Assembly: GCA_041559015.1 (NCBI GenBank)
Contig: JBFFED010000003.1
Location: 7,495 to 71,494 of the forward strand
From: Thermoplasmata archaeon
GTDB taxonomy: Archaea > Thermoplasmatota > Thermoplasmata > UBA10834
DNA: 64,000 nt
Reading direction: 5' to 3'
Made by a program: the position numbers and the translations under genes
Part shown: in pieces, positions 23,620 through 57,300 of the stretch
How positions within the stretch are numbered: the stretch's first letter is position 1
How the letters are laid out: the number at the start of each line of letters is the position of its first letter
The notes under the pieces: generated by a model
Database searches by the model: none
What the model was told of the DNA's origin: nothing
What the model saw: the letters and a program-made list of their open reading frames with translations, nothing else

Positions 23620-23806
23620 CCCGGCGGACGAATGCGGGGTGGCGCCTAATGGGTTGCAGCTACATGCAGTGTACGGGGCATGCCACACGCAGATGCGCAC
23701 ACGTTACGCATGGGCCCGTGCGTGGCCATGACGACAAGGGATGTCTGTCATGGGCTGTAGAAATCATTTTAGGCAGAATTCGCGTTAAACCCCTCGGGAT
23801 GCACTC

Positions 23807-41850: not shown

Positions 41851-41903
41851 ATTCGCGAGACCGTCGACCTCTCGCCGATGTGCTCGCACTGGGCAGATCT
41901 ACA

Positions 41904-42695
41904 CTAGCCCAGGCGTTTGTACGCCGCGGTGACCACGAAGATGGCCACGGCGAGGAACACGATCACGCCGCTTGTGGCCACATCGTATATCGCGGATAGC
42001 AGCACCCCGAGCATCATGCTCACCGTGCCGAAAACGATGGCCGCGGCCGTGGTCCCTCTGAAGGACAGCTTCAGCTGGAGCGCGGACAGGCCCGGGAGGA
42101 CCAGCAACGCCACGACGAGCACTATCCCGACGACCTTGATGGAGAGCACGATCGTGGTGGCGACGAGTATGCTGAACGAGAGGGATATGGGTTCCACCGG
42201 GATGCCCATCAGCTTCGATGCGCCCTCGTCGAAGGTTATCGACAGGAGCTCCTTGTAGAAGACACCCAGGAAGACGAGAGTGACCAGCCCGAGGACTGAC
42301 ACCACCAGCAGGTCGGTCGAGTCTATCGTGAGTATTGACCCGAATAGGTAACCGAACAGCTCCACATTGAAGCCCCCGGCGATGCTCACGATTATCAGCC
42401 CTCCCGAGAAACCAGTCGCGAGCATGACCGCTATGGCGGAGTCGGAAGTGGCGATGCCCCTCGACCTCATGTAGTGTATCCCCACGACCGCGAATATGCA
42501 GACGACGAGGGCGGTGAGGATAGGCGATATGCCCAGGAGCAGCCCGAGGGCTATGCCCCCGAAGGCGGTGTGCGCCACGCCGTCGCCTATCATCGCCTCC
42601 TTCCTGAGGATCAGGAAGACGCCGACCCAGGCGCATGCGAACGCCGCGATCGTGCCCCCCAGGAGGGCATATTGGAAGAACTGGAATCCGAGCAT
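41904..42695 (-). CDS. znuB: Metal (Zn/Mn) ABC transporter permease, ABC-3 family
   Basis: FQYALLGGTIAAFACAWVGVFLILRKEAMIGDGVAHTAFGGIALG is the ABC-3 signature region. The ATG at 42695 is chosen; the family alignment suggests the true start may lie a few codons upstream, at the znuC stop. Confidence 0.85.
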   Translation of the reverse strand: MLGFQFFQYALLGGTIAAFACAWVGVFLILRKEAMIGDGVAHTAFGGIALGLLLGISPILTALVVCIFAVVGIHYMRSRGIATSDSAIAVMLATGFSGGLIIVSIAGGFNVELFGYLFGSILTIDSTDLLVVSVLGLVTLVFLGVFYKELLSITFDEGASKLMGIPVEPISLSFSILVATTIVLSIKVVGIVLVVALLVLPGLSALQLKLSFRGTTAAAIVFGTVSMMLGVLLSAIYDVATSGVIVFLAVAIFVVTAAYKRLG

Positions 42696-42720
42696 GCGGG
42701 GGATGTCGAGGAGTGAGAGC

Positions 42721-43506
42721 TCAATCGTTCCCGAACACCCCCTCGCACTCGTGCTTGTGGAAGACGAACCTGAAGTGCTCCCCATAGGCCTTCTTGAGGA
42801 ACTCCCCCGGCTCCTTGAGCTCGCTGATCCCGGCCATGTTGACCTCCCTGCTGACGCACATGACCTTGGACATCCTGCAGAAGACCGCGGTGAGGTCGTG
42901 GGAGACCGTGCAGATCGTGATCCCCTTGTTCAGGTTGATGTCGCTCAGGATCCTGTAGAACTTCTCCTGCGAGGCGGCATCGACCCCCGTCACGGGCTCG
43001 TCCAGGAACAGTATCCTGGGGCTGCGCACGAGCACCTTGGCCACGAAGACCCGCTGCTTCTGCCCGCCCGAGAGCTCGCCTATCCTCTGCCCCGAGAGCT
43101 CCGACATGCCAACTGTCTCCAGCATATCGTCCACGGCCTTCCAGTCCTCCTGCCTGAGCCGCCTCCCGATGTTGCCCCTGTTGACCCTGCCGAAGGCCAC
43201 GAGCTCCCTCACGGACAGCGGGAAGCTCGAGTCGAATGAGGTGGCGTCCTGAGAGACGTATGCCACGAACTCCCAGTTGCGGAAACGATGCAACGGTTCC
43301 CCGAAGAGTTCTATCTCTCCCCTGTCGACGGGTAGCATCCCGAGGAGCGCGAGGAGCAGCGTAGTCTTTCCCCCGCCGTTGGGCCCGACGATGCCGACGT
43401 AGTCACCTTCTCTGATCGTGAAGTTGGCGTTCTCGATCACCGGCCCGTTCGACCTGGACACGGACAGGTTCCTGACCTCGACCACAGTCTTGTTCTCGTC
43501 GCTCAT
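42721..43506 (-). CDS. znuC: Metal ABC transporter ATP-binding protein
   Basis: Walker A is GPNGGGKTT, the signature is LSGGQKQR, and Walker B is ILFLDEP. Confidence 0.9.
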   Translation of the reverse strand: MSDENKTVVEVRNLSVSRSNGPVIENANFTIREGDYVGIVGPNGGGKTTLLLALLGMLPVDRGEIELFGEPLHRFRNWEFVAYVSQDATSFDSSFPLSVRELVAFGRVNRGNIGRRLRQEDWKAVDDMLETVGMSELSGQRIGELSGGQKQRVFVAKVLVRSPRILFLDEPVTGVDAASQEKFYRILSDINLNKGITICTVSHDLTAVFCRMSKVMCVSREVNMAGISELKEPGEFLKKAYGEHFRFVFHKHECEGVFGND

Positions 43507-43557
43507 CTCATTGCCCCGTCAACTTCCCCCAGGCACTCGCCGCGGCGCGTGACCCGG

Positions 43558-44484
43558 TCATCCGGCCTCCAGCCCGGCTGCGAGGTTCTCCAGGTTCGCC
43601 TCCATCTGCGCGATCATGTCCAGGCCATCCACTACCCCGACGAGCAGGTACAAGTGCATCACGACCACCTCGTGCCCCGTCTGGTCCTCGAGGCTCCTTC
43701 GGAGCGTGTCCGCGTAGTCCTCGCGATAGAGAGGGTCGACATACACGACGTAGATATCGTACTCCACCATAAGCTCGACTAGCGAGGCGATGGTCGTGGC
43801 GCTCGGGCTCTCGTCCGCGGACAGGCCGATTATCCCGTGCTGCTCGAAACCGTACCGGCTTGCGAGATAACCGTAGGCAGAGTGTCCGACGAACGCGTCA
43901 GACTTGTCCTTGCCAGACAGACGTTCAGTGTAGGAGCTGTCGAGCGCCTCGAGCCGGCTCGACAGAAGGGCCCACCTCTCGCCGTAGTAGCTCGAGTTCC
44001 CAGGGTCGACGGAGACCAGCGCTTGGTGGATCCTCTCGGCCTGCCACCTCGCCACATACGGGCTCAGCCAGGTGTGCGGGTCGTAGGATGAGTCGCCGCC
44101 TGAAGGCAGCAGGTCGAGGCCGGAGGTGGTGTCGATAATCAGCTTGCCCTCCGTGTCCAAGGCTGGGAGTATCTCGTCCTCGAACCACGGTTCGAGCCCA
44201 GCCCCGTTGTACACGACTATGTCCGCCGTGTCGACCTCGAGCATGTCCCTCGTCGAGGGTTCCCAGGAGTGAACCTCGTTGTTCTGTGGAATAAGTGTTT
44301 TGACGGAGACCCGCTCGCCCCCGATCGTCTCCGCGAGGTAGGCCAGAGGATAGAAGGTCGCGACGACGCTTGTCCTGTCGTCCTCCTCCGATTGCTGGAG
44401 GAGCGAGGCGAGCGCGATGCTCGACACCATGGCAGCGCATGCAACAGCCAGGGCTGCCAGGAAGATCTTCTGTCTGCGATTCAT
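43558..44484 (-). CDS. znuA: Metal ABC transporter substrate-binding protein (ZnuA/TroA cluster 9)
   Basis: It has an N-terminal signal/anchor and the motifs VVATFYPLAYLAE, NEVHSWEPS and DPHTWLSP. Confidence 0.87.
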   Translation of the reverse strand: MNRRQKIFLAALAVACAAMVSSIALASLLQQSEEDDRTSVVATFYPLAYLAETIGGERVSVKTLIPQNNEVHSWEPSTRDMLEVDTADIVVYNGAGLEPWFEDEILPALDTEGKLIIDTTSGLDLLPSGGDSSYDPHTWLSPYVARWQAERIHQALVSVDPGNSSYYGERWALLSSRLEALDSSYTERLSGKDKSDAFVGHSAYGYLASRYGFEQHGIIGLSADESPSATTIASLVELMVEYDIYVVYVDPLYREDYADTLRRSLEDQTGHEVVVMHLYLLVGVVDGLDMIAQMEANLENLAAGLEAG

Positions 44485-44598: not shown

Positions 44599-45723
44599 TC
44601 AGGTCTGCTCGGGCGCTGCGCGCCGCTTGCGCAGGGGCTTTCCCTCGTGGTCGTAGAATCTGCTCTTGAACCAGAGGGACACATTGACCAGGCCTATCAG
44701 AACTGGCACCTCCATGAGGGGTCCTATGACCGCCACGAAGGCGACGATGGAGTATATCCCGAAGGTCGCGACCGCAACGGCTATGGCGAGCTCGAAGTTG
44801 TTGCTGGCGGCTGTGAAGGACTGAGTCGCGGACTGGCCATAGCTGAACCCGAGCCTGTGCGAGAGCCCGAAGCTGAGGAAGAACATGAGCAGGAAGTAGG
44901 CGAGCAGGGGCAACGCGACCCTGGCGACATCCCATGGCCGGCTGATGATCTCCTCGCCCTGGAGCGCGAACATCACCACTATCGTGAAAAGGAGCCCTAC
45001 TAGAGCGAGAGGGCTTATCCTGGGAGCAAAAACGGTATCGTACCACACTCGTCCCTTGTAGCGCCCCAAGAGGAACCAGCTCGCCACCCCGAGGGCGAAC
45101 GGTATCCCCAGGAAGATGAGTACGTTCTTCGCGATCTGAGCCATCGTGATGCCGACCACCGCGGCCTCCGCGGACGGCGCGATGACAGGGGTCATCACCG
45201 TGATGAGCAGGAACGCGAGGACGGAGTACATGAATATCTGGAACACTGAGTTGAGAGCCACGAGGACCGCGCAGTACTCGCAGTCCCCATCCGCGAGCAT
45301 GTTCCATACGAGGACCATCGCTATGCACCTGGCGATGCCTATGAGGATGAGCCCGTTCCTGAACGCTGTCGAGGTCTCATCGGTGCCCGGGAAGGCGAGC
45401 CAAGCAAGGGCGAACATCAGCATTGGGCCTATGGCCCAGTTCAGGACGAGCGAGGTGGTCAGCATCTTCTTGGCCTGTCTGAGCTTGCCCAGCTCGTCGT
45501 AGTGCACCTTGGCCAGTGGCGGATACATCATGACAAGGAGGCCTATGGCTATCGGGAGCGAGACGTCGAACACCTTGATGGAGTCGAGCGTGTCCGCCAG
45601 CTCTGGCACCACGTAGCCGAGGCCAAGCCCCAGGCCCATTGCCAGGAATATCCAGAGGGTCAGGAACTCGTCCAGGAAGGAGAGCCCCTTCCTGGGCGCC
45701 TCGCACGATGGTGCCGCTCCCAT
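44599..45723 (-). CDS. acr3: ACR3-family arsenite efflux permease
   Basis: It has LSFLDEFLTLWIFLAMGLGLGLG and the ACR3 signature IGIARCIAMVLVWN. The ATG at 45723 is chosen because the ORF-track start at 45945 overlaps the upstream ferredoxin gene. Confidence 0.87.
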   Translation of the reverse strand: MGAAPSCEAPRKGLSFLDEFLTLWIFLAMGLGLGLGYVVPELADTLDSIKVFDVSLPIAIGLLVMMYPPLAKVHYDELGKLRQAKKMLTTSLVLNWAIGPMLMFALAWLAFPGTDETSTAFRNGLILIGIARCIAMVLVWNMLADGDCEYCAVLVALNSVFQIFMYSVLAFLLITVMTPVIAPSAEAAVVGITMAQIAKNVLIFLGIPFALGVASWFLLGRYKGRVWYDTVFAPRISPLALVGLLFTIVVMFALQGEEIISRPWDVARVALPLLAYFLLMFFLSFGLSHRLGFSYGQSATQSFTAASNNFELAIAVAVATFGIYSIVAFVAVIGPLMEVPVLIGLVNVSLWFKSRFYDHEGKPLRKRRAAPEQT

Positions 45724-45727
45724 GCTG

Positions 45728-46012
45728 TCAGGCCTTCCCCTGGTGCTCCTCTCTGAGGGCCTTGAGGATATCCCTGATGTCCAGGAGGCTCGGGAACGAG
45801 AGCGCGCCCTCCGGACATTCGGACTGGCACCCTGAGCAGCCGATGATGCAGTTGAAGGGGTTCTTGACGCGCGCCTTCCCGGGCAGGTCATACACGTCGT
45901 GAACGCAGAACTTGACACACGCGCCGCACCCGGTGCACTTCTCATCCAGTATTGTTGGGTACCACGGCACCTTCTCCCTCGGAATGTCCTTGATCGAACT
46001 CACGCCTCTCAC
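45728..46012 (-). CDS. 4Fe-4S dicluster-domain ferredoxin-like protein
   Basis: 94 aa with CTGCGACVKFC and CIIGCSGCQSECP. Confidence 0.72.
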   Translation of the reverse strand: MRGVSSIKDIPREKVPWYPTILDEKCTGCGACVKFCVHDVYDLPGKARVKNPFNCIIGCSGCQSECPEGALSFPSLLDIRDILKALREEHQGKA

Positions 46013-46044: not shown

Positions 46045-46284
46045 TCAGGCCCTCTCCTTCAATATCTGGACAATCTCTTCCACGGTCGGAATCCTTCCGG
46101 CGGCCACCAAGTCACCGTCTATCGCGAGCCCTGGCGTGGACATCAGCCCACGGTCGACTATCTCGCCTATGTCGGTGACCTTCACGACCTCCGCCTTCAG
46201 GCCCGTCTGCTCGAGGGCCTTCATCACGTTATGCTCGACTCCCCTGCACTTGGGACAGCCCGTCCCGAACACCTCTATCTTCAC
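46045..46284 (-). CDS. Small thioredoxin-fold protein (redox-active disulfide protein 2 type)
   Basis: 79 aa. MKIEVFGTGCPKCRGV has the CxxC at the N-terminus, and the TPGLAIDG cis-Pro region is present. Confidence 0.8.
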   Translation of the reverse strand: MKIEVFGTGCPKCRGVEHNVMKALEQTGLKAEVVKVTDIGEIVDRGLMSTPGLAIDGDLVAAGRIPTVEEIVQILKERA

Positions 46285-46544
46285 CTCTTCACCTCCGAAC
46301 CGACAGACTTGAGCTTGAGATACTCCTGCCAGACGGCGTCCAGGTAATCCTGTTCGCTCCCCGACGGTATGTAGTTGTATATCTTCAGCTGCCTCATGAG
46401 GAACTCCTTGACGGACCCCTCGGCCTGGTCGCCGAGAAGCCTGGCGGCGCGGAGTATGTCATCCAGCTGGGATATCCCCACGCTCTGCCCACCCACGGTT
46501 ATCGTCCTTACGCTTGTTCTCCCCGGACAGCACGCTCCTGGCAT
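46281..46544 (-). CDS. Small hypothetical protein with an N-terminal vicinal cysteine pair
   Basis: 87 aa beginning MPGACCPGRTS. It overlaps the thioredoxin start by 4 nt and lies 7 nt after the permease stop. No family was recognised. Confidence 0.5.
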   Translation of the reverse strand: MPGACCPGRTSVRTITVGGQSVGISQLDDILRAARLLGDQAEGSVKEFLMRQLKIYNYIPSGSEQDYLDAVWQEYLKLKSVGSEVKR

Positions 46545-46551
46545 CTCTTGG

Positions 46552-47673
46552 TCACCCCGCGAACAGACCGAATATCATCCCCGCGGCCGTCGTGAACACG
46601 ACCACGAGCAGGACATAGACGGCTATCTTCTTCTTGCCCATTATCCTCCCGGTCACGAGCACGCTCTGGAACGACAGTTCGGGGTCGGCCAGCAGATACG
46701 CCAGCAGAGGCCCTTTCGCCATCCCGAGGTCGAGGAACATCCTCGCGACCGGCACCTCGACGAGCGTCGGGAAGTACATGAACACGCCGAACAGGACCGC
46801 TATCAGCACCGCGGATAGGTTGTTGCTGCCGAGATACTCTCCCACCACCTCTTCCGGTATGAGCGCGGAGGCCACGCCAGCGACGAACACCCCTATGAGA
46901 AGCAGGGGAATTATCATCTTGGCGAAGAAGTAGGTCTCGTTCATCCACGATCTGTTCTCAGTCCTGGTGTTCGTCCTCCATGCCCATGCGATGGACGCCG
47001 CCACGGTCAGGACGAGGCCCGCGACTCTCAGGCTGAGTGGCATCGGCGCGGTCCCGACCACCAGGATAGACACGAGGAGCACGAACAGCACGCTGCTCTT
47101 GTGTCGAAGCAGCCTTGAGAAAGCCGAGGCCTTCTGAACGGCGACTTCTGGGATGGCGGTGGCCGGGGTGCCCTTCGTGAAGGCGTCATCGGCTCGCGGA
47201 GCAGTACGCGCTCTGAACACTAGCCCTGTCCTCTCGAAGATGAGCATCATGAGTATGCCGATGGTTATCCCGAAGGCTATTGCCAGCACTGCCCTGGCAA
47301 AGGCGATGTCCCATCCGATCAGGCTGCCCGTGTATGTTATCGCGAGGAGGTTGATCGCTGGTCCGGTGAACAGGAAGGTCACCGCGGGGCCGAGGCCCGC
47401 ACCCTTCTTCCATATCCCCGCGAACAGGGGGAGGATCGTACACGAGCAGACGGCGATGAGGAGCCCGGCCACCGACGCTATCGGATATGAGATGTACGCG
47501 GGAGTCTCCTTGCCCAGATACTTCGTGACGGACTCCTTGGTGAAGAGCGCGGACAGAGCACCGGCGATGAAGAAGGCGGGAACGAGGCATATGAGCACGT
47601 GGGCCGAGAGGTAGTTCACCAGGCCGTCGATGCCTGCGATGAAGAGGGAGCCGAGGTAATCGAGGACGCTCAT
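46552..47673 (-). CDS. Permease of the UPF0718/DUF318 (ArsP/YraQ-like) family
   Basis: 373 aa and polytopic, with the Cys pair in TM context IAVCSCTILPLFAGIWKKG. Confidence 0.78.
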   Translation of the reverse strand: MSVLDYLGSLFIAGIDGLVNYLSAHVLICLVPAFFIAGALSALFTKESVTKYLGKETPAYISYPIASVAGLLIAVCSCTILPLFAGIWKKGAGLGPAVTFLFTGPAINLLAITYTGSLIGWDIAFARAVLAIAFGITIGILMMLIFERTGLVFRARTAPRADDAFTKGTPATAIPEVAVQKASAFSRLLRHKSSVLFVLLVSILVVGTAPMPLSLRVAGLVLTVAASIAWAWRTNTRTENRSWMNETYFFAKMIIPLLLIGVFVAGVASALIPEEVVGEYLGSNNLSAVLIAVLFGVFMYFPTLVEVPVARMFLDLGMAKGPLLAYLLADPELSFQSVLVTGRIMGKKKIAVYVLLVVVFTTAAGMIFGLFAG

Positions 47674-47682
47674 CCTATCTTC

Positions 47683-47759
47683 TCAAGTATTTCTAACAAA
47701 GTTGAAATATCCTGACGACTATAAGGGCTTTGTGGTTTCAAAGAAAATTGAAGTATCCT
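47683..47759. promoter_or_regulatory. Repeated motif in the divergent permease/arsR intergenic region
   Basis: TTGAAATATCCT (47702-47713) and TTGAAGTATCCT (47748-47759) match at 11 of 12 positions, 46 nt apart. A third related copy, TCAAGTAT, is at 47683-47690. The stretch is AT-rich. Confidence 0.3.
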
Positions 47760-47779
47760 TGAGGGGGACCGTCAGGGAG

Positions 47780-48109
47780 ATGGAGGTGCCTCCAGAGGTG
47801 TCCAGGGGGATGAACGAGATCGGGGGCGCGAAGTCATTGGAGAGGGGGATCCCCAGACCAGACCGCATCACCGCGGTGGCCAGGCATCACATGGCCCTCT
47901 CGGACGAGATAAGGCTGAGATTGCTGTACGCCCTTTCTGTGACCGACCTGTGCCCCTGCATAATGAAGATGCTGTCCGGCACCAGCGACTCGAAGCTGTC
48001 CTATCACCTGAAGCTGCTCGAGTCCGAGGGGCTGATTACCGCGAAGCGCGTCAAGAACTGGCGGATATACTCGATATCAGAGAAGGGCCGCAGATCGCTC
48101 AAGCTCTGA
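47780..48109 (+). CDS. arsR: ArsR/SmtB-family metalloregulator
   Basis: The HTH region is ALSDEIRLRLLYALSVTDLCPCIMKMLSGTSDSKLSYHLKLLESEGLI, with a CPC pair in the alpha3-equivalent position. The ATG at 47780 is preferred over the TTG at 47702. Confidence 0.83.
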   Translation: MEVPPEVSRGMNEIGGAKSLERGIPRPDRITAVARHHMALSDEIRLRLLYALSVTDLCPCIMKMLSGTSDSKLSYHLKLLESEGLITAKRVKNWRIYSISEKGRRSLKL

Positions 48110-48142
48110 AGCGACCTACGCTCATAACCGGGGGATCACGGC

Positions 48143-49123
48143 GTGGCGAAGAGGAGGACCAAGGAAGAACAGGACAGGAAGCGGTTGCTCTCCGAAGGCT
48201 ACACTGAATGCTCGGGCTGCGGCACGCTCCTCAAGCCAAAGGCAAGGAGGTGCGGCAAGTGCGGGACACTCACATACTCTGCCAAGAAGGCCATCTACGC
48301 CATCGCGGCCGTGGCGATGGTGGTGGCCGCCTCCGTTCTTGCCTACGCATACTATCCACGAGATGAGTACAGAGTGCTCCCCAGCGTGGTGGAGTTCTCC
48401 CCGAGCGGCTACGGTGCCTCGACGGGGACCCACATCACGGCGACATTCAACCGGCCCATGGACCGGGTTTCAGTCGAATCCTCGTTCACCATCCATCCGA
48501 CGGTCACGGGATCGTTCTCGTGGGCAGGGACGACGATGACATTCACGCCATCGAGCCCGCTGCTGGACCAGACATATTACACCGCGACGGTCGGGTCGGG
48601 CGCGAGGGATGCGGACGGCTCGCAGCTGGACTGTGTCGTCTTCACGTGGTCATTCTTCACTGGCAGCCTTCCGACTGAGAGAAGAGATGTTGGGACCGGC
48701 CCAGAAGACTTCTGGACAGTCTACCCGCCCTCGCACCCGTCGAGCGGCGGCTCGGTGCAACACCCCCAGTGGGTGCTCTCAGCCCTCGAGAGCGGAGTTG
48801 TGTTGATATTCGACCACAGCGAGGGGTGCGCCCCGTGCATCACGCAGGGGACCATATGCGAGGCAATCTCCTCCGCCAACCCGGATATCAGGTATTACGA
48901 CCTCTTGTCCGGAACGGACGAGCCGCAGGCATCCGAGGCGTTCGCGGCGTACGACCCCTCTGGAGGCATACACTATGTCCCGCTCACCATCGTGATCACA
49001 TGGGTGCAGTCGCCATATGGCGGCGTGGCAGTCGGGTGGCATAGCTGGGAGGGCGTCATCGACCAGACCTCCCTCATGAGCTGGATCGCCGATGCGAAAT
49101 CACACTATGATGGGAACAGTTGA
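48143..49123 (+). CDS. Membrane protein: cytosolic zinc ribbon, TM helix, extracytoplasmic Ig-like (SbsA/Big_5-type) domain and thioredoxin-fold domain (CAPC)
   Basis: The zinc ribbon is CSGCGTLLKPKARRCGKCG and the TM helix is IYAIAAVAMVVAASVLAYAY. The Ig-like segment is FSPSGYGASTGTHITATFNRPMDRVSVESSFTIHP...TFTPSSPL. The Trx-like part is VLIFDHSEGCAPCITQ with a cis-Pro (HYVPLT). Confidence 0.65.
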   Translation: MAKRRTKEEQDRKRLLSEGYTECSGCGTLLKPKARRCGKCGTLTYSAKKAIYAIAAVAMVVAASVLAYAYYPRDEYRVLPSVVEFSPSGYGASTGTHITATFNRPMDRVSVESSFTIHPTVTGSFSWAGTTMTFTPSSPLLDQTYYTATVGSGARDADGSQLDCVVFTWSFFTGSLPTERRDVGTGPEDFWTVYPPSHPSSGGSVQHPQWVLSALESGVVLIFDHSEGCAPCITQGTICEAISSANPDIRYYDLLSGTDEPQASEAFAAYDPSGGIHYVPLTIVITWVQSPYGGVAVGWHSWEGVIDQTSLMSWIADAKSHYDGNS

Positions 49124-49137
49124 GGCCGTGCAGTACC

Positions 49138-50541
49138 ATGAACCCCAGGCGTCTATCCCTCTTTGTCATCGTCTCATGCCTTCTTGTGGTGGTCGCCCTT
49201 GCGGCGTTGGCCTCTTCGTGGTTCGACGATCAAGGGCAGAGCCTTGGCCAGCCAGCCGACATGTTCGAGGTCGATGACAGGCTCGGGCAGCGGGTGTCTC
49301 TGGCAGACAACGTGGGCAAGGTGACTGTGATTCATTTCACCCAGGTGGAGAACCCGCTCTGCATCGAATGCGAGGCATATATTCGTCTTCAGATAGAGGA
49401 GCTCGAGAGCCTAGTGGGTTCGACGGGCTCGGAGATAGACGTGATCACGGTGAACATCCGCAAGAACCCTTATTCTGAGACGGGCTGGAAACTTGTTGAG
49501 GACTGGTACGGCACGAACATAAGCTGGCACTGGATAGAGGAGTCCGAGCCTTTCCCAGTCTCGAGCGCGTACTTGCAGTACTGGGACGTCAGCGGGGCCT
49601 TCTCCAACCCGACCCTCGTGCTGGTCGACCAGGACCTCACCGTGGTAGGCGTGTACAACGTCTACTGCATAGGCAAGGGCGTGGTCGACGGGGTTCGAAG
49701 CGCAAGTGAGCTGGAGGAGGATGCCGCTGCGATCCTGGCCGGCGAGTGGACCCTGCCTTCAGATGGCTCCGCAGGGGAGGCCGTGGTCGGCGTCGGAGGG
49801 ATGTTCCTGCTGGGGGTCATAACCTCGTTCTCTCCGTGTTCCCTCGCGCTCCTGATGGCCGTCATCTCGTTCATCGGGGCCGCGGCCATGGGCTCGGGGA
49901 GGCAAGAGGGCGTACCGTCGAGACATCAGTCCTTGGGCCTGAGAATCGGCATCGCCTTCACGGGCGGAACCGCACTGGTGTTCCTCATCTTCGGGCTGGC
50001 GATCTCCTACATAGGCAGCTTCGTCCAGATGTCATCGACTTTCTACCTCATCTCCGGAATCATACTCGTGGTCCTGGGGATTAACATAATCCGTCCGATC
50101 GGGGACCTGCTCAGGAGAGGGTTGTCAGCTATACGTGAAGGGCCCTCGTGCCCGATGCCACCCGCAGGCGGGCAAGAGAACACCCTGCAGGGAAGGCTGA
50201 AGTCGTTGAGCCGGAGGTCCCCCGAGCTCGCAGGGTTCCTGCTAGGCATCCTGTTCTCCCTTGGATGGGCGCCCTGCGCCCTGTCCCTAGTGTTCCCAGT
50301 CCTGATACTGCTGATATCCCAGAACATCTCGATGTTGACCGGTGGGATACTCATGCTCGCGTTCGGGCTCGGACACGGGGTCGCGATCATACCGTTCTGC
50401 GCCGCCACTAGCGAGATAAAGGGAGCCCTCGGCAACAAGTACATCTTCCTGTCGAGATGGATTCAGGTGATATTCGCAGGGGCGGTTGTCATCATCGGAA
50501 TCCTCTTCGCTGCGAGGTATTTCGGCTTCAACCTGTGGTGA
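49138..50541 (+). CDS. Fusion of a TlpA/redoxin-like domain (CIEC) with a CcdA/DsbD-type transmembrane electron transporter
   Basis: An N-terminal anchor is followed by GKVTVIHFTQVENPLCIECE. A 6-TM CcdA-like core then carries the two conserved Cys residues (SFSPCSLALL and LGWAPCALSL). The alternative TTG start at 49120 overlaps the previous stop. Confidence 0.8.
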   Translation: MNPRRLSLFVIVSCLLVVVALAALASSWFDDQGQSLGQPADMFEVDDRLGQRVSLADNVGKVTVIHFTQVENPLCIECEAYIRLQIEELESLVGSTGSEIDVITVNIRKNPYSETGWKLVEDWYGTNISWHWIEESEPFPVSSAYLQYWDVSGAFSNPTLVLVDQDLTVVGVYNVYCIGKGVVDGVRSASELEEDAAAILAGEWTLPSDGSAGEAVVGVGGMFLLGVITSFSPCSLALLMAVISFIGAAAMGSGRQEGVPSRHQSLGLRIGIAFTGGTALVFLIFGLAISYIGSFVQMSSTFYLISGIILVVLGINIIRPIGDLLRRGLSAIREGPSCPMPPAGGQENTLQGRLKSLSRRSPELAGFLLGILFSLGWAPCALSLVFPVLILLISQNISMLTGGILMLAFGLGHGVAIIPFCAATSEIKGALGNKYIFLSRWIQVIFAGAVVIIGILFAARYFGFNLW

Positions 50542-50791: not shown

Positions 50792-50923
50792 ATGGACGCA
50801 ACCGCAATCGAAGGGCTGACCAAGCGCTACGGAGACTCAGCCGCAGTCGACCACACAGGCCTCAAGATTGGCGAGGGCGAGTTCTTCGGCCCGCTCATTA
50901 GCGGCATCGTCGGTGGACATTAG
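50792..50923 (+). pseudogene. 5' remnant of an ABC-transporter ATP-binding protein gene
   Basis: The 43 codons read MDATAIEGLTKRYGDSAAVDHTGLKIGEGEFFG and then diverge (PLISGIVGGH*) exactly where Walker A (GLLGPNGAGKT) is expected. No remainder of the gene follows. Confidence 0.6.
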
Positions 50924-51010: not shown

Positions 51011-54000
51011 ATGACGGAAGGATTCGCACCCCAGCAGTCCTTCATGGACCGTGCCATCGAACTAGAGAGGCAATATGATTGGCTCGGGGCGGCAGGGACC
51101 TACGAAGAGGCCCTGAAGTCGCTTCCCAAGACCGAGCCCCTGAGAACCGGTGACATCCTCGAGCGGAGAGCCTATGCTCTGTACAAGGGGGCGCTGCAGG
51201 CTGAGAACGTCGAGGAGTTCGAGGGCAGCGCGGACAGGGCGACCAAGGCGTACGAGGAGGCGAAGGCCATTTACCTCACAGCCGAGAATGAGTACGGCAA
51301 GCCGAGGGTGAGCAGGTGCGATGCCATGCTCGCCTTCATGACATTCCTGAGAGCGGCCGACGCGGACCATAGACGGACGGCGGCCTGCGAATCCTGGAAT
51401 CATGCGAAGGGCTCCCTGGACGCTTTCGCCTCCCTTGATGAGATGCACGAGTTCTGCAGGACATTCTATGATCTTTCATTGGCTGCGATCTACTACTCCA
51501 ATCTCGTGCCCGATTACGAGACCAGGAAGAAGGCTTGGACCGAAGCGACCAGTTGTGGGGAGAGAGCAGCCACGTTCGCCCTTGCGGATGAGGACCAAGA
51601 CCTCTGCATAGGAATTCTGGTCCTCGTGGCGGCCCTACTGCACAGGGGAGGCTACTGCGGGCTCTGTGATGAATCCCCTCAGTACTGTCACGAGCAATCG
51701 ATTGACCTCTGGAGGAAGGCCGATTCACTGTCGAAGGACAAAGCCCTCTCAAGCGCACCCATAGCATGGATTACGGGAGATGCCGTGATCGATTCCTCAT
51801 GGGACACGGCCACGCAACTGGAGGCTTTCAGGAAGGCACTCGAGTTGGTCCGCCCGTCAAGAAACAGATTGATTATCGGGCATGCTCATGCTGCGGTCTC
51901 GTTCTTCGCCCACTGGATAGGAGACCTGAATGAGGATCCGGAACAGGGCAGTGCGCTGATGGCCGAAGCCCTGGAGAGTGCTCTGGAGGCCGGGCGTGAG
52001 TTTCTGAAGATTGGGTTCTTGGCTGAGACAGGGCACAACATATGGGTCATGTCACCCCAGTCAGATTACTATGTATTCATGGCTCGTAACGAGAAGGATC
52101 TCAAGAAGAAACGGCAGTACACGGAAGAGGGACTCAAGGCCTTTCCTGAGTATGAGAGGCTCTCACGTCTGGCTGGGTATACATGGCAGACATTGAGTGT
52201 CGAGGGCAGTAACGGCAGCCTTCTATGGAGTATGGCGATGACTGAGGCAGAAACGGGCACTAAGCGCACCCTGCTGCAGAAGGGCGTGGACCTTCTTAGG
52301 AAGTCCGCTGAGCGTCTCGAGATATGGGACTCCGGGAATCCGTACAACCTCGGCATATTCCACTTCTGGCTAGCCTTTGCTCTGAATGACCTGGCTGAGA
52401 CGACCTCGGACAAGGATTCCAGGGCTAGAATCATCCGAGAGGCAATACTCGTGGGGGAGAAATCGAACCGAGAATACGAGGAAGGAATGAAGGCCGCATA
52501 CATGGCACAGGACCAGCCAACCGTGGCGGGCCTGGCCTGGGGCCTTGATCGACTTGGACGAGCGTATTGCAGCCTCTTTGAACTCGAGCGCGATCGCGAC
52601 CTCCTCAGACACGCCCTGGAATCCTATGAGAAGGCCAGTGAGTTGTACACGGACAGCATGAGTCCGAGCATGGCCGCGGAGAGCCTCTGGAAAGCTGCAA
52701 GGATCTACGACCAACTTGAGAACCACGTGAGATCCGGAGAGAGATTCCTGTCGGCTTCGAGAGGTTACAGAGAGGGTGCGGAGAAGATACCTAGTCTCAA
52801 GGACTTGTTCTCTGAGCAGGCGACGTACCTGGAGGCCTGGGCCGAGTTCGAGAAGGCCAAGCACTGTCATTCGCGTCAGGAGTACCTGCAGGCCCACTCG
52901 CACTTCGAGAAGGCGGCTCAGCTGCATGAAGGACTTGACAAATGGCGGTTCCTCTCATCCAATTACCGCGCATGGGCGCTCGCCGACAAGGCAGAGGCGC
53001 TCAGCAGAGAAGACAGGCGGGCCGAGGCAGCCAAGGCCTTCGAGGAGGCAGCTGACCTTTTCAACGCATCGGGCGTCGCGTTGAAGGAGACAGGGAAGAA
53101 TGCTGAGAATGAAGACGAGAAGCGGATGATCTCTCGCCTGCTTGGCGCGTCTCACCCAAGACGAGAGTACTGCCTAGCGAGGGCGATGATCGAGAGGGCC
53201 CGTCAGATGGATGTCAACGGCATGAGCTCGTCGAGCAGCGAGATGTACCGTACTGCCGCGGACGAGCTCGAACGGCTCGCCAGCGAGGCGATATCCGAGA
53301 AAGACCGGAAGGACATCAAGCTGCTCGCCGTCATTTCAAGGGCCTGGCAGAAGATGAACCAGGCAGAAGCTGAGATCTCCCCGGAGCCATATGCCCATGC
53401 CGCACTCCTGTTCGAGGAGGTGAAAGAGCTCAGCACGAACGACAAGGCGAAGGCGCTCTCCCTCGGGCACAGTCGATTCTGCATGGCCTTGGAGGCTGGA
53501 ACCAAGTTCGCTGACACCAGGGAACCTGCCTTGCACACGGCCGCCATCAAGAACCTCGAGAGCGCCTCGTCATTCTATGTCAAAGCGGGCGCGGACAGAT
53601 GCTCGGAGTACGCTCGGGCCAGCAAGTTGCTGTTCGACGCCTATGCCTACCTTGCAGAAGCAGGCCAAGAGAAGGACCAGGAGAAGGCAGCGAAGACCTA
53701 CGCAAGGGCAGAGAAGGTCCTTAAGGCCTCTTCGGATTCATATGACAGGGCCGGACAGGGAGCGAAGAAGGACCAGGTGCTCAAGCTCCTCGAGAGGGTG
53801 AGGAAAGAGCGCGAGTTGGCCGTTTCGCTTATGGAAGTCTTCGAGGCCCCCACTGGAGCCTCCTCGACCGATGCATTCGGTGCCCCTATGCCGTCCCAGG
53901 AAGAAGCCGTTGGCCTGGACCGCTTCGCTCATGCGGATGTGCAGGCTGCTCTGATAATCCAGAGGAACGACGTCAAAGTCGGAGACGATATGGCAATCGA

Positions 54001-54334
54001 GATAGAGCTGGTGAACGCGGGCAGGGCCTCTGCGCAGCTCACCAAAGTGGAAAACATCATTCCTGTGGGGTTCGACGTACTCTCGAAGCCTGCGACTTAC
54101 CGCATAGAGGACAGCTACATCATGATGAAGGGTAAGCGGCTCGACCCGCTCAAGACGGAAGAGATCGCTCTCGTACTGAGGCCGAAGGTCCAGGGCAGAT
54201 TCACGCTCAGACCGAGGATACTGTACATAGATGACGAGGGTTCGTACAAGGTGCGCGAGGTCGAAGGGTGCGAGATCACCGTGAAGGAGCTCGGGGTCGC
54301 GGGCTGGCTGAAAGGACCAGAGAGGGCCAAATAG
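51011..54334 (+). CDS. Large (1107 aa) alpha-solenoid (SNAP/TPR-like repeat) protein with a C-terminal beta-sandwich domain, paralog A
   Basis: Uninterrupted ORF with AGGAGG 5 nt upstream of the ATG. Helix-pair repeats of the type AAE..W.AA..YD run throughout. The C-terminal ~140 aa are beta-rich (IELVNAGRASAQLTKV). It has no signal peptide, TM helix or P-loop. It is collinear with the next ORF. Confidence 0.8.
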   Translation: MTEGFAPQQSFMDRAIELERQYDWLGAAGTYEEALKSLPKTEPLRTGDILERRAYALYKGALQAENVEEFEGSADRATKAYEEAKAIYLTAENEYGKPRVSRCDAMLAFMTFLRAADADHRRTAACESWNHAKGSLDAFASLDEMHEFCRTFYDLSLAAIYYSNLVPDYETRKKAWTEATSCGERAATFALADEDQDLCIGILVLVAALLHRGGYCGLCDESPQYCHEQSIDLWRKADSLSKDKALSSAPIAWITGDAVIDSSWDTATQLEAFRKALELVRPSRNRLIIGHAHAAVSFFAHWIGDLNEDPEQGSALMAEALESALEAGREFLKIGFLAETGHNIWVMSPQSDYYVFMARNEKDLKKKRQYTEEGLKAFPEYERLSRLAGYTWQTLSVEGSNGSLLWSMAMTEAETGTKRTLLQKGVDLLRKSAERLEIWDSGNPYNLGIFHFWLAFALNDLAETTSDKDSRARIIREAILVGEKSNREYEEGMKAAYMAQDQPTVAGLAWGLDRLGRAYCSLFELERDRDLLRHALESYEKASELYTDSMSPSMAAESLWKAARIYDQLENHVRSGERFLSASRGYREGAEKIPSLKDLFSEQATYLEAWAEFEKAKHCHSRQEYLQAHSHFEKAAQLHEGLDKWRFLSSNYRAWALADKAEALSREDRRAEAAKAFEEAADLFNASGVALKETGKNAENEDEKRMISRLLGASHPRREYCLARAMIERARQMDVNGMSSSSSEMYRTAADELERLASEAISEKDRKDIKLLAVISRAWQKMNQAEAEISPEPYAHAALLFEEVKELSTNDKAKALSLGHSRFCMALEAGTKFADTREPALHTAAIKNLESASSFYVKAGADRCSEYARASKLLFDAYAYLAEAGQEKDQEKAAKTYARAEKVLKASSDSYDRAGQGAKKDQVLKLLERVRKERELAVSLMEVFEAPTGASSTDAFGAPMPSQEEAVGLDRFAHADVQAALIIQRNDVKVGDDMAIEIELVNAGRASAQLTKVENIIPVGFDVLSKPATYRIEDSYIMMKGKRLDPLKTEEIALVLRPKVQGRFTLRPRILYIDDEGSYKVREVEGCEITVKELGVAGWLKGPERAK
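53909..54331 (+). other. C-terminal beta-sandwich-like domain of paralog A
   Basis: VGLDRFAHADVQAALIIQ...IELVNAGRASAQLTKVENIIPVGFDV...GWLKGP shows a CARDB/DUF11-like alternation pattern. About half of its positions are identical to paralog B by eye. Confidence 0.45.
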
Positions 54335-54368: not shown

Positions 54369-57300
54369 ATGGCAGAGGATAGAGCGGACCTGGAGACACT
54401 AATACGGGGTGCGAAGGAGAAGGAGAGGCTATACAACTGGCAGGAAGCAGGAGCCCTCTACTCCAGGGCCTTGGAACTCGTCGCGGAGAAGGATGCGATG
54501 AAGAGGGGCACCCTCGAGGAGAGCCTCGGCTACTCTATCCACAGACATGCGTTCCAAGCTAGGACGCCGGAGGAGTTCTCGAAGAGGATAGAGAACGCCC
54601 TGGGTGTGTACGGGAGGGCCGAGAAGGACTTCGAAGGGAGCACAGACCCGACTGCAGGGGCCAGAGCAGCGAGATGCAGGGCGATGTCCAGCTATCTGAG
54701 GTTCTGGCTTGAGCCTGATTTCGTCAAGAAAAGAGAGCACGTCAACAGCGCATGGAGCCACGCAAAGACAGCGCTCGAATCATCATTGACGACAGGAGAC
54801 CATGCCCAGCTGGGAAAGACCTGCAACGACACATTCCTTGCCGTGGTCCTTTCATACGATTTCGAGCCTGGAGTGGCCGAGAGGACCTCGATTCTCTCAG
54901 ATATCATGAGGTATGTCAGCGAAGCGGTTGAACACCCAGTCGAACCGAGGCAGCACGCGGAGAACCTCGTTCAGCTGGCAGGATGGCTTGAGGTCTCTAT
55001 GGCGTTCCTCCCCAACATGGTCGCACAACTGGAAGAGACCATCAAGAGAGCTCACACATCCTGGCTCAAGGCATGCGAAGTCGACGAGGAGGCTGCGCTC
55101 CTGGAGAGGACGAAGACAGACCTGCTGTTTGGGCTTGACTGGTCCACCTGCGGTTTACAGGGCACGCCTACCAGTGGTGAGATCCTGATGGCCGTCACCG
55201 AACGCCAACTGGCGGTCGCCGAGAAGGCAGGTGACAGGCTTGCGATCGGCAATGCAAAGAGCGTGAAGGCGGGAAACCTGGTCTGGGACACCGCCACCAT
55301 AGAGGACCCTGATGAGCTCAAGATAGCCATCGAGGAGATAGAGCAAGTCTCTGAGGATGCCAGACGCGAGTTCGGGGCAATCTCATTCGTCTCTCCTGAC
55401 TACCTGACGGGTCATTGGACATCAGCACCGAGTTCGCCATGGACTTACGCAATGCAGAGCTGGAGAGAGATGGATCTGAATAAGAAACGGCGCATCGCAT
55501 CCCAGGGGCTCGAACGGGCGCGTGAACAGCTCGCATTTGCCGAGAAGACGCATTATCCGTATGTGGTGACAAGTGCACACTACACCATGGGGTTCCTGCT
55601 GTTAGAGGTCGCAAAATGCGAAGACGACCTCAAACGGAGGCGAGCACTCCTGCGCGAGTCAGTCAGACACAATGACATAAACATAGCGGGAGAGGACACC
55701 TATCATCAATCACAGTTTTGGAACAGGGGAGTAGCTCTTTGTCAGATGGCCCGGACCGAGGTAGAGCTAGGCAGAATCACAGAAGACAAGAAGGAGAGAT
55801 TGCGTCTATTGCGTTCTTCTGCCTCTCACACAAGAGAGGGACTGGAACTCTGCGAGACGACGCTTCACACATTCGTCGGAGTCCCCTATGACGTACGCAT
55901 ACTCACCATGTTGGGATTGTTCTGGCTGGACCATGGCCGAATCCAGAGGCTCTGCTGGCGGCAAAGCCGGGACAATAGCGACCTCGAGTCCGCATGCGTC
56001 GCCTTCGAGAGGGCGGCGGAGATTCAGATGGAGGCTGGTGTCCTCAGTCGTGCAGCGGAGAGCTTCTGGGAGGCGGCGCAGGCGTACGACATCGCGGGCA
56101 ATCACACCAGGGCTTCGGACAGTTTCAATCGTGCCGCAGAGAACTATAGAGAGGCGGCGCGGAGAACGAAGCCGCTCAGAGGGTATTTCGAGGACCACGC
56201 ATTGTACATGCAGGGCTGGTCGGAGATAGAAAGGGCCAAACTGTATCACTCGAAACAGGAACCAGCACCCTCGAGTGAGCACTTCAAGAAAGCTTCTGAG
56301 CTTCACGCCTCAACGATGAGATGGAGCTTCCTTGCGTCCAACTACTCTGCCTGGGCAGAGGTCGAGAACGGCGAGGACCTGAGCCAGAAGGAGGACAGCG
56401 CCGCATCAATCGACGCGTTCAAGGACGCTGCGAGATTGTTTCTGGAATCCAAGAAGAACATACGCGCGCATCTCAGCCTCATCACCGACACCGACCTGAA
56501 GCAGATGGCCACAGAGCTCATTGACGCAGTGGACAACAGGCGAGACCTCTGTGAGGCACGCGCTGTCCTGGAATCTGCGCGACAGCTCGACAGGGAAGGC
56601 AAGATGACCGAGGCCGCGGAGAGGTATGGTCGTGGTACTGAGATGCTGCACAAGGTGAGGGAGCGAGTTCGCTCAGAGCAGGACAGGAAGGAAATCGACC
56701 TCAATCTGACACTCACGAACGCCTGGAGGGCGATGGCCAAAGCGGAGACCGAAACCTCCCCCGGACTCTATGAGGAGGCTGCACGCCTCTTCGAGAAGGC
56801 GAAGGACCTCAGCCCAGGTGAGAAGGCGAGGAACTTGGCGATTGGGAACAGCAAGTTCTGCAGGGCCTTAGAGGCGGGCGCGAAGTTCGAGGATACGGGT
56901 GATCAGGCGCTGCACTCAGTTGCGGCTGATAACCTGGAGAGCGCTGCCAGGCATTACATGAAGGCTGGCCAGGACAAAGCGGCGGAATACACTAGGGCGA
57001 GCAGATTGCTTTTCGACGCCTACGTGGCCATGGGCAACGCCAGCAAGGAACGGGAGCACGACAAGAAGGCTTCCCTCTACGCTGTCGCCGAGAAGATACT
57101 GGAGGCGTCTGCGGTGTCCTTCGACAAGGCCCGGCAGCCAGGCAGGAAAGCCCAGATTCGGAGGCTGCTGGAGCGAGTGCAGAGAGACCGGGAGCTGGCC
57201 GTCTCGCTCACACATGTGTTTCGAGCGCCAGACATAGCCTCTGCTGCTGTGGCGATCTCATCGCCATCCTACGAAGTTCCCGTGGGTCTTGACAGGTTCG

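Follow-up and report, generated by a model that had tools for sequence, protein, structure and literature searches.

A predicted ArsR-controlled thiol-reducing relay within a conserved arsenic-efflux gene module of Thermoplasmatota

Introduction

In CcdA/DsbD systems, electrons cross the membrane by thiol–disulfide exchange and are passed to outward-facing thioredoxin-fold acceptors; DsbD of E. coli is composed of an alpha Ig-like, a beta transmembrane (TM), and a gamma thioredoxin-like domain. The locus described here, arsR-ORF2-ORF3, lies at positions 47780-50541 (plus strand) of a 64,000-nucleotide stretch of DNA from a Thermoplasmata archaeon (GenBank assembly GCA_041559015.1, contig JBFFED010000003.1), hereafter called the window, and encodes an ArsR/SmtB-family repressor followed by two membrane proteins of the thioredoxin and CcdA type. 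An original prediction, made from the letters of the sequence, knew of no described system with this combination of domains. Judged by gene order and sequence families, the locus is not unprecedented: it appears as the plus-strand half of a Thermoplasmatota-wide module, that is, as part of a larger conserved set of arsenic-efflux genes. The reading preferred here, which we place just on the probable side, is that arsR-ORF2-ORF3 encodes a relay that is controlled by ArsR, driven by CcdA, and coupled to metalloid efflux, and that reduces thiols outside the cytoplasm.

Surface thioredoxins that receive their electrons from CcdA have been described in S. pneumoniae, in the CcdA-Etrx1/2-MsrAB2 system (PMC3914529). 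There, as with CcdA and ResA/StoA in B. subtilis, a six-TM CcdA core with two Pro-Cys motifs feeds membrane-tethered, outward thioredoxin-fold reductases, an arrangement shared by the present locus. The locus differs in that its redoxin domain is fused N-terminally to CcdA by way of an extra signal-anchor helix and carries CIEC rather than WCxPC, in that the second acceptor (ORF2) comes from a thioredoxin-like family without a Pfam or NCBIfam model, and in that it is found in an archaeon and among ars genes, not cytochrome, sporulation, or Msr genes.

The determinants "CcdA, thioredoxin, redox-active disulfide protein 2" have been recorded in ars operons (Castillo and Saier, 2010, PMC2963123), and earlier work on the ars-operon CcdA left undecided whether it moves electrons across the membrane. 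This set and ArsEFG of Shewanella putrefaciens have in common with the window a DsbD-superfamily membrane protein, a thioredoxin-fold protein, and a TIGR00412-type thioredoxin beside arsR, arsP, and acr3. They are bacterial and made up of separate, unfused genes, whereas here the thioredoxin folds are predicted to be extracytoplasmic and one of them is fused to CcdA; they have been read as support for a cytoplasmic arsenate reductase, or as nitro-reduction plus efflux. Functions of ArsE, ArsF, and ArsG are given here after their NCBIfam names and as they are reportedly assigned. The NCBIfam name for TIGR00412 is the MTH895/ArsE family, and a model for the ArsG efflux permease is also present in that collection; the window has an ArsE-type small thioredoxin (gene 46045-46284), and its ORF3 scores below the ArsG equivalog level.

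A reducing pathway of the envelope that answers to metal stress is represented by the copper-induced Scs system with ScsB (PMC3322552). In Salmonella and Caulobacter (ScsB-ScsC-ScsD; PMC3322552; bioRxiv 10.64898/2026.05.22.727170), a DsbD-superfamily transporter feeds a membrane TlpA-like reductase and a second thioredoxin fold, much as is proposed here. However, ScsB is of the DsbD type with periplasmic domains of its own, the system is induced by copper, its operon contains neither an efflux permease nor a dedicated cytoplasmic thioredoxin, and there is no sequence relationship to the window module beyond the superfamily. DsbD of E. coli likewise offers the same elements, namely, an Ig-like domain, a CcdA-type TM core, and a thioredoxin-fold domain, which in the window are split over two polypeptides and stand in another order.

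Regulator, CSC permease, and small thioredoxin also occur together in bacterial arsR-permease(ArsP_1)-Trx_3 cassettes (for example, in Acinetobacter pXMC5X702-195k and Peptoclostridium acidaminophilum), some of them on plasmids and often beside arsC, ACR3, and arsH, and a preprint by Haft discusses putative organometallic systems in which a CSC permease is paired with a small thioredoxin-like protein (bioRxiv 10.1101/2022.07.06.499078). These cassettes are without ORF2 and redoxin-CcdA, whereas the Thermoplasmatota add a two-gene, predicted extracytoplasmic arm. Since both the bacterial cassettes and the ars-operon CcdA are already on record, the Thermoplasmatota module can be regarded as an elaborated, fused, and putatively extracytoplasmic version of a known, unexplained association.

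The arsR-ORF2-ORF3 locus

The locus consists of the following three genes.

47780-48109, plus strand: arsR, ATG start, 109 aa; ArsR/SmtB-family winged-helix repressor with a conserved C58-P-C60 in helix alpha-3
48143-49123, plus strand: ORF2, GTG start, 326 aa; bitopic membrane protein
49138-50541, plus strand: ORF3, 467 aa from ATG 49138, or 473 aa from TTG 49120

These are real, closely spaced genes, and full-length homologues at E-values from 1e-80 to 1e-250 rule out chance ORFs. The gap between arsR and ORF2 is 33 nt, while ORF3 begins either at TTG 49120, with a 4-nt overlap with the ORF2 stop, or at ATG 49138, 14 nt past it; the majority of its homologues begin at the ATG-equivalent position. 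This is the order and spacing that had been read from the sequence at the outset. For arsR, a longer TTG ORF from 47702 is possible, and the GTG start of ORF2 is backed by an MAKRR N-terminus conserved among homologues. Proteins identical to ORF2 are also encoded in the NCBI assemblies GCA_041553355.1 and GCA_041571415.1.

A conserved gene module in Thermoplasmatota

A scan of one genome per species returned 34 loci with an ORF2 relative, all in metagenome-assembled genomes (MAGs) of Thermoplasmatota, and five further neighbourhoods with precomputed Pfam labels were added. Synteny was tallied by tblastn over non-redundant loci, of which 25 with at least 3 kb of upstream sequence were taken as informative. 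In each of the loci with enough downstream sequence (33/33), a redoxin-CcdA gene begins no more than 140 nt past the ORF2-like gene and shares its strand. Among the informative loci, Thioredoxin_3 was found in 24/25, an ArsP_1 permease in 23/25, and ArsR in 22/25, followed by the less regular s87 (10/25), ferredoxin (9/25), and ACR3 (8/25). On this sequence evidence, the core of the module is an ArsR repressor, an ArsP CSC permease, an MTH895/ArsE-type thioredoxin, ORF2, and ORF3, with s87, ferredoxin, and ACR3 as its accessory members. A conserved cysteine motif is found in ArsR, ArsP, s87, and Trx_3, as well as in ORF2 (CxPC) and ORF3 (CIEC and two Pro-Cys).

The order of the genes varies. 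In the window and in other loci, arsR-ORF2-ORF3 diverges from arsP-s87-trx3-fer4-acr3; some lineages have a collinear arsP-trx3-ORF2-ORF3 with arsR divergent; and in L041, arsR, labelled HTH_5 by Pfam, heads arsP-trx3-ORF2-ORF3 on the same strand. By the same labels, an HTH_5-methyltransferase gene stands approximately 4.5 kb upstream in L001. The linkage survives these collinear and divergent rearrangements, which argues for a functional unit and not an accidental neighbourhood. An ArsR-led operon, as originally proposed, therefore fits the gene order of the window but not a general rule, because elsewhere in the phylum arsR is divergent or, as in L041, leads a longer collinear operon. The idea of a self-contained conduit did not hold, as the small Thioredoxin_3 and ArsP are conserved together with the pair and are encoded here in the divergent operon (46045-47673).

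The genes of that operon share the minus strand; neighbours either overlap slightly or stand no more than 32 nt apart.

46552-47673, minus strand: arsP, 373 aa; ArsP_1 (PF03773, 245 bits) with a membrane-embedded LAVCSC; first gene of the divergent operon
46281-46544, minus strand: s87, 87 aa; conserved N-terminal Cys-Cys-Pro-Gly (13 relatives aligned); between arsP and trx3
46045-46284, minus strand: trx3, 79 aa; cytoplasmic Thioredoxin_3 of the MTH895/ArsE family with GCPKC
45728-46012, minus strand: fer4, 94 aa; 2x[4Fe-4S] ferredoxin with multiple Fer4 Pfam matches; between trx3 and acr3
44599-45723, minus strand: acr3, ACR3-family arsenite efflux; last gene of the divergent operon

The CSC motif of ArsP is invariant in 26 relatives, as LAVCSC or, in three loci, as TPFCSCS. 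In the window ArsP, the motifs that Yang et al. 2015 (PMC4435449) assign to cluster 1 are present, namely, HVLICLVPAFFIAG and LAV-CSC. The three loci with TPFCSCS (L003, L018, and L027) have a cluster-2 ArsP instead, as in Campylobacter ArsP, so that the relay is tied to both ArsP subfamilies.

The small thioredoxin matches PF13192 with 92 bits and TIGR00412 with 93.6 bits against a cutoff of 62, and its CxxC is kept among relatives as GCxKC; it is probably the dedicated electron donor to the CcdA core. The ferredoxin, which could supply the small thioredoxin with electrons, has its best NCBIfam match, below threshold, in HgcB, a ferredoxin of mercury methylation. ACR3 is recognized by TIGR00832 at equivalog level (404 bits, cutoff 283) and by SBF too, and from the sequence its true start is most likely ATG 45723, 4 nt past the fer4 stop. 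No Pfam or NCBIfam match was obtained for s87; its two adjacent Cys are reminiscent of ArsD and other metalloid chaperones, to which it has no sequence relationship.

Duplicated members occur in several loci. Tandem ORF2-like paralogues, a long one and then a short one, precede the redoxin-CcdA gene in L019 (1909-3440), L020 (8001-9475), and L024 (8001-9458); L029 (346-1050 and 3170-3577) has a second ORF2-like match downstream of the CcdA gene; and in L001 a second Thioredoxin_3 gene (8428-8658) stands just past the CcdA gene.

ORF3, a redoxin-CcdA fusion

ORF3 is divided into three parts.

49144-49221, plus strand: signal-anchor helix (TM0)
49249-49752, plus strand: ResA/TlpA-like redoxin domain, predicted extracytoplasmic, with CIEC at 49360-49371
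49780-50520, plus strand: six-TM CcdA core with Pro-Cys cysteines C234 (49837-49839) and C380 (50275-50277)

Six hydrophobic helices follow the redoxin domain, and this region passes the Pfam cutoffs for DsbD_2 (PF13386, 39.5 bits, cutoff 24.9) and DsbD_TM (PF02683, 27.9 bits, cutoff 27.1). The family profile matches CcdA of Thermus thermophilus (5vkv) with an E-value of 5e-3 and with both Pro-Cys motifs aligned: P233-C234 and P379-C380, invariant in 39/39 sequences, correspond to the SPC and TPC motifs of CcdA. By its sequence profiles, the core belongs to the CcdA/DsbD superfamily, and it keeps both catalytic cysteines, as had been supposed.

The N-terminal domain has no Pfam match, and it falls short of the Redoxin and AhpC-TSA families, whereas homologues at 45-50% identity do match Redoxin (PF08534) or AhpC-TSA (PF00578). 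In the AlphaFold 2 (AF2) model, the domain has a predicted local distance difference test score (pLDDT) of approximately 90, and Foldseek aligns it with ResA (1su9, TM-score 0.74) and Etrx2 (2yp6, TM-score 0.79), Etrx1 also being among the best matches. C75 and C78 of the CIEC motif and N157-P158 are invariant, and the context of the active site is P-L-C-I-E-C, not the usual W-C-x-P-C type. As modelled, the domain is a TlpA/ResA-like redoxin fold with a cis-Pro, predicted to be tethered outside the cell.

The fusion is common, with more than 500 clusters at 90% identity. Among the best 120 homologues, the named sources are all Thermoplasmatota, and the usual annotation is cytochrome c biogenesis protein CcdA; a tblastn search of the ORF3 TM core against plasmids gave no match. 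Of the two fusions first put forward as novel, this one is therefore widespread in the phylum under an automatic CcdA label, and what is new is the thioredoxin-like domain of ORF2.

ORF2, a membrane-anchored protein with a divergent thioredoxin-like domain

ORF2 comprises the following regions.

48200-48268, plus strand: zinc ribbon CxxC...CxxC within a basic N-terminus, predicted cytoplasmic
48275-48352, plus strand: TM helix, from hydropathy and model
48380-48661, plus strand: Big_5 Ig-like domain, predicted extracytoplasmic
48680-49120, plus strand: divergent thioredoxin-like domain with CAPC at 48827-48838

Pfam detects Big_5 significantly at residues 80-173 (53.6 bits) and, under its cutoff, Zn_ribbon_3 at residues 20-42 (18.8 bits), in a region modelled with pLDDT above 90. 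The AF2 model, based on 45 homologues, has a mean pLDDT of 92.7, with values above 90 for the thioredoxin-like residues 209-325, and is laid out as an N-terminal helix and ribbon, a TM helix (45-70), a beta-sandwich (82-172), and a beta-alpha-beta-alpha-beta-beta-alpha domain (209-325). When the whole model is submitted to Foldseek, Ig matches (LdtMt2, SbsC) dominate and thioredoxins appear from rank 43 down; the Ig part matches the Ig domains of SbsC and LdtMt2, and the C-terminal domain matches the thioredoxins 7asw (TM-score 0.68) and 2ipa (TM-score 0.67).

For the C-terminal 150 residues, neither Pfam nor NCBIfam gives a significant match; 22 members of the domain searched against Pfam gave best E-values of 0.036-0.07, and a profile of the domain against the PDB gave weak thioredoxin matches (best E 3e-3). 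C229, P231, C232, P272, P280 (at the cis-Pro position), W299, and H300 are invariant, and H225, W302, and E303 are nearly so. According to the model, the domain is a thioredoxin fold with CxPC and cis-Pro, and sequence searches place it outside the curated thioredoxin-like families of Pfam and NCBIfam. A small new thioredoxin-like domain family, with conserved His and Trp around CxPC, is thus defined, and by analogy with Sco proteins the conserved His near CxPC could point to a metal-binding role. No relationship between this domain and the ORF3 family or its redoxin was found by hhalign, which indicates that the two putatively extracytoplasmic domains are not recent paralogues.

The domain is rare, with approximately 100 representatives (50% identity, E <= 1e-10) among 1.84 billion proteins. 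Most of these are 170-260 aa long and consist of a TM anchor and the domain, without Ig, while a few relatives bear extra C-terminal domains and a second TM helix. In the sample of 45 aligned relatives, the Ig domain is present in 29 and the four-Cys ribbon in 33; a C2H2-type finger replaces the ribbon in eight, and the other four have no such zinc motif and mostly a basic tail. Because Ig and ribbon are absent from many relatives, the oddest features of ORF2 are accessory decorations, and the conserved core, as far as the alignment can tell, is the TM anchor with the novel thioredoxin-like domain. In the combination first singled out as particularly odd, an Ig-thioredoxin protein anchored by a cytosolic zinc ribbon, both the ribbon and the Ig domain are dispensable within the family.

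A role of the Ig domain like that of DsbD alpha was considered and rejected. The Big_5 domain has a single, non-conserved Cys (C164, in 20/45 relatives), belongs to a separate polypeptide, and is absent in the short-form relatives; without a conserved Cys pair, and so often missing, it makes such a role impossible.

Predicted topology

Topology was predicted from hydropathy and charge counts. The N-terminal 49 residues of ORF2 contain 14 K/R and five D/E, as for an inside location, and its C-terminal 258 residues contain nine K/R and 27 D/E, as for an outside one. In ORF3, an RR pair stands ahead of TM0, the redoxin domain has nine K/R and 31 D/E, and loops rich in K/R recur in the alternating pattern of a CcdA that has its N-terminus outside. 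The prediction is thus that the thioredoxin folds of ORF2 and ORF3 are both extracytoplasmic.

On this charge bias, the outward orientation first suggested for the two domains was retained, and the domain assignments all agree with what Pfam, NCBIfam, AF2, Foldseek, and family profiles return; the CAPC and CIEC active sites are likewise confirmed, with C229-x-P231-C232, C75, and C78 invariant. What survives of the original prediction is its general idea, a predicted electron conduit to two extracytoplasmic thioredoxin folds that is linked to a metalloregulator and to metalloid export.

ArsR and the divergent control region

The repressor scores 27.3 bits with HTH_5 (PF01022, cutoff 22) and 55.4 bits with the ArsR/SmtB model NF033788 (cutoff 55), and its LCxC motif is kept in 27/30 aligned relatives. 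In a BLASTP alignment, DLCPC of the window ArsR is placed opposite ELCVC, which we take to be C32-V-C34 of E. coli ArsR; the third Cys of that protein (C37) has no counterpart here. By this alignment, the window ArsR carries the alpha-3 Cys pair of the As(III) type, and metalloid binding is predicted.

47674-47779, no strand assigned: shared divergent control region, a 106-bp spacer between arsP (minus strand) and arsR (plus strand)

The spacer contains a TATA-like box, CTATAAG, at approximately 47719-47725, with TTGAAA/TTTCAA repeats on both sides. The direct repeats are two 24-nt copies (47690-47713 and 47736-47759), the second of which contains the palindrome TTTCAA-N6-TTGAA. In an intergenic alignment, seven relatives share the conserved block ACAAAnTTGAAATA ... 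TATA ... TTTGTGGTTTCAAAGAAAATTGAA, although their ArsR proteins are only 44-68% identical. The region is read as a shared bidirectional archaeal promoter with candidate ArsR operators, which the repeats probably are. A sigma-70 promoter scan, not applicable to an archaeon, found nothing, and a terminator scan gave chance-level matches only.

Proposed mechanism and alternative explanations

Together, the CxC of ArsR, the presence of ArsP, and often that of ACR3 suggest, by analogy with the copper-induced Scs system, that the relay is deployed under metalloid or soft-metal stress. The CxC of ArsR would bind a thiophilic metalloid, for which As(III) and trivalent organoarsenicals are the likeliest candidates, and the metalloid-bound repressor would leave the repeats around the shared TATA box, by which both divergent operons would be derepressed. 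ArsP and ACR3 would then expel the toxicant, and reducing equivalents would run from the small cytoplasmic thioredoxin to C234/C380 of the CcdA core and on to C75/C78 of the fused redoxin, from which they might pass to C229/C232 of ORF2 or straight to cell-surface proteins. The outcome would be that surface cysteines are kept reduced or repaired, or that the toxicant is held on dithiols; alternatively, the target of the outward thiols may be the outward-facing state of the CSC permease, which would be kept reduced. The direction and the partners of electron flow are inferred in this scheme by analogy with CcdA/DsbD systems, and the inducer and the physiological substrate are likewise putative.

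Several observations weigh against this scheme. The inducer is deduced from family resemblance alone, and members of the ArsR/SmtB family are also known as sensors of persulfides and of other metals. Just eight of the 25 informative loci have ACR3, so that the arsenic link rests mainly on ArsP and on ArsR family membership, and one locus (L006) has the ORF2-ORF3 pair without any ars-type neighbour. The benefit of reduction outside the cell against arsenite is not obvious, and all relatives come from MAGs. As for ORF3, its TM domain is modelled with moderate confidence (pLDDT 50-85), and the 50 best Foldseek matches are all redoxin with no CcdA among them, which leaves CcdA membership to the sequence profiles; the sole NCBIfam match of the TM domain is the ArsG model NF040495, with 39.9 bits against a cutoff of 200.

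The strongest rival, itself unlikely, is general extracytoplasmic redox maintenance without a metalloid link, an archaeal counterpart of the CcdA-Etrx or CcdA-StoA/ResA-type systems whose substrates would be surface proteins, methionine sulfoxide reductases, or peroxiredoxins, or whose task would be disulfide isomerisation; the ArsR-like regulator would then respond to persulfide or to the redox state, and the pair would have no more than a promoter region in common with the ars neighbours, a cassette in its own right. Such a role would suit L006, the bacterial arsR-permease-Trx_3 cassette that occurs without CcdA, and the place of Etrx1 and Etrx2 among the best structural matches of the ORF3 redoxin. 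It is harder to reconcile with the co-occurrence of Trx_3, ArsP, and ArsR in 22-24 of 25 loci, collinear and divergent alike, with a Cys pair of ArsR at the As(III) site position and not at BigR-type positions, and with five annotated neighbourhoods in which no Msr or peroxiredoxin genes were seen. Still less probable is a pathway for organoarsenicals like ArsEFG, in which the membrane domain of ORF3 would be an ArsG-type permease that moves arsenicals instead of electrons and the thioredoxin folds would process or chaperone the substrate. The match with NF040495, the only one of its kind for the TM region, has an E-value of 2.9e-10 and covers nearly the whole model, the neighbouring Trx_3 passes the MTH895/ArsE cutoff, and the genomic context is ars-related; however, the score is far under the ArsG cutoff while those of DsbD_2 and DsbD_TM are passed, both Pro-Cys motifs are invariant and aligned with a solved CcdA, and the redoxin domains are predicted outside, whereas ArsE and ArsF are reported to act in the cytoplasm (Chen, Zhang and Rosen, 2019).

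Cytochrome c maturation, in which CcdA and a ResA-like redoxin would reduce the CxxCH of apocytochromes, is the function implied by the annotation of the homologues, and ResA is the best structural match of the ORF3 redoxin. It is nonetheless very improbable and was rejected on gene context: the conserved neighbours are arsR, arsP, trx3, and acr3; neither ResB/ResC (CcsBA) nor Ccm was found among the Pfam-labelled neighbours of five loci or the 19 window proteins scanned; and a six-frame scan of the 64-kb window found no multihaem CxxCH ORFs. Several hosts of related loci are labelled Methanomassiliicoccales, an order that is not known to have cytochromes. Archaeal CcdA homologues, including those of lineages so labelled, are routinely named cytochrome c biogenesis proteins, and the strict linkage to arsR, arsP, the small thioredoxin, and sometimes ACR3 means that this label is probably wrong for the phylum-wide CcdA family.

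For the metalloid-linked thiol relay, the module offers a concrete, testable model of why DsbD-superfamily proteins and small thioredoxins occupy ars operons, a puzzle since 2010: an ArsR operator would control a chain in which thioredoxin hands electrons to CcdA, CcdA to the fused redoxin, and the redoxin to another thioredoxin at the surface. If the relay truly aids metalloid resistance, an extracytoplasmic redox step would join the schemes of arsenic detoxification, which is an incremental addition and no new principle. A more far-reaching version, put forward tentatively and thought somewhat unlikely, is that the module is an overlooked extracellular arm of arsenic or soft-metal resistance, in which Trx, redoxin-CcdA, and the ORF2 family co-evolved with ArsP and which captures or reduces exported trivalent arsenicals, or strips them off surface thiols, in hosts without an outer membrane. 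In that case, the invariant H-x3-C-x-P-C ... W-H-S-W-E signature of ORF2 could supply the ligands of a Cys2His-type site like that of Sco proteins, and the widespread bacterial ArsP-Trx_3 cassette would be a minimal form of the same redox-assisted efflux principle.

Other features of the window

The 64-kb window has a G+C content of approximately 60%, and a tRNA scan of it found none, so that there is no sign of an integrated element. Within the 470-nt spacer that follows ORF3, a 43-codon ORF (50792-50923, plus strand) contains only the N-terminal part of an ABC-transporter ATPase (IEGLTKRYG...GEFFG) before its stop codon and is apparently the remnant of a gene; in L042, a related locus, an intact ABC transporter is encoded downstream of the CcdA gene. 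Two tandem paralogous ORFs of approximately 1,110 aa follow on the plus strand (51011-54334 and 54369-57713), which are 34% identical over their full length, neither with a Pfam domain.

On the other side, the minus-strand genes directly downstream of acr3 (41899-44484) include a ZnuA-type substrate-binding protein (43558-44484) and an ABC ATPase (42721-43506), which look like part of a Zn/Mn-uptake ABC transporter, and, after the ATPase, a 245-aa ORF without a Pfam match (41899-42636). Farther away on the minus strand, a 1,503-aa ORF (19189-23700), whose sole match is the Lamin Tail Domain, may encode a large surface protein.

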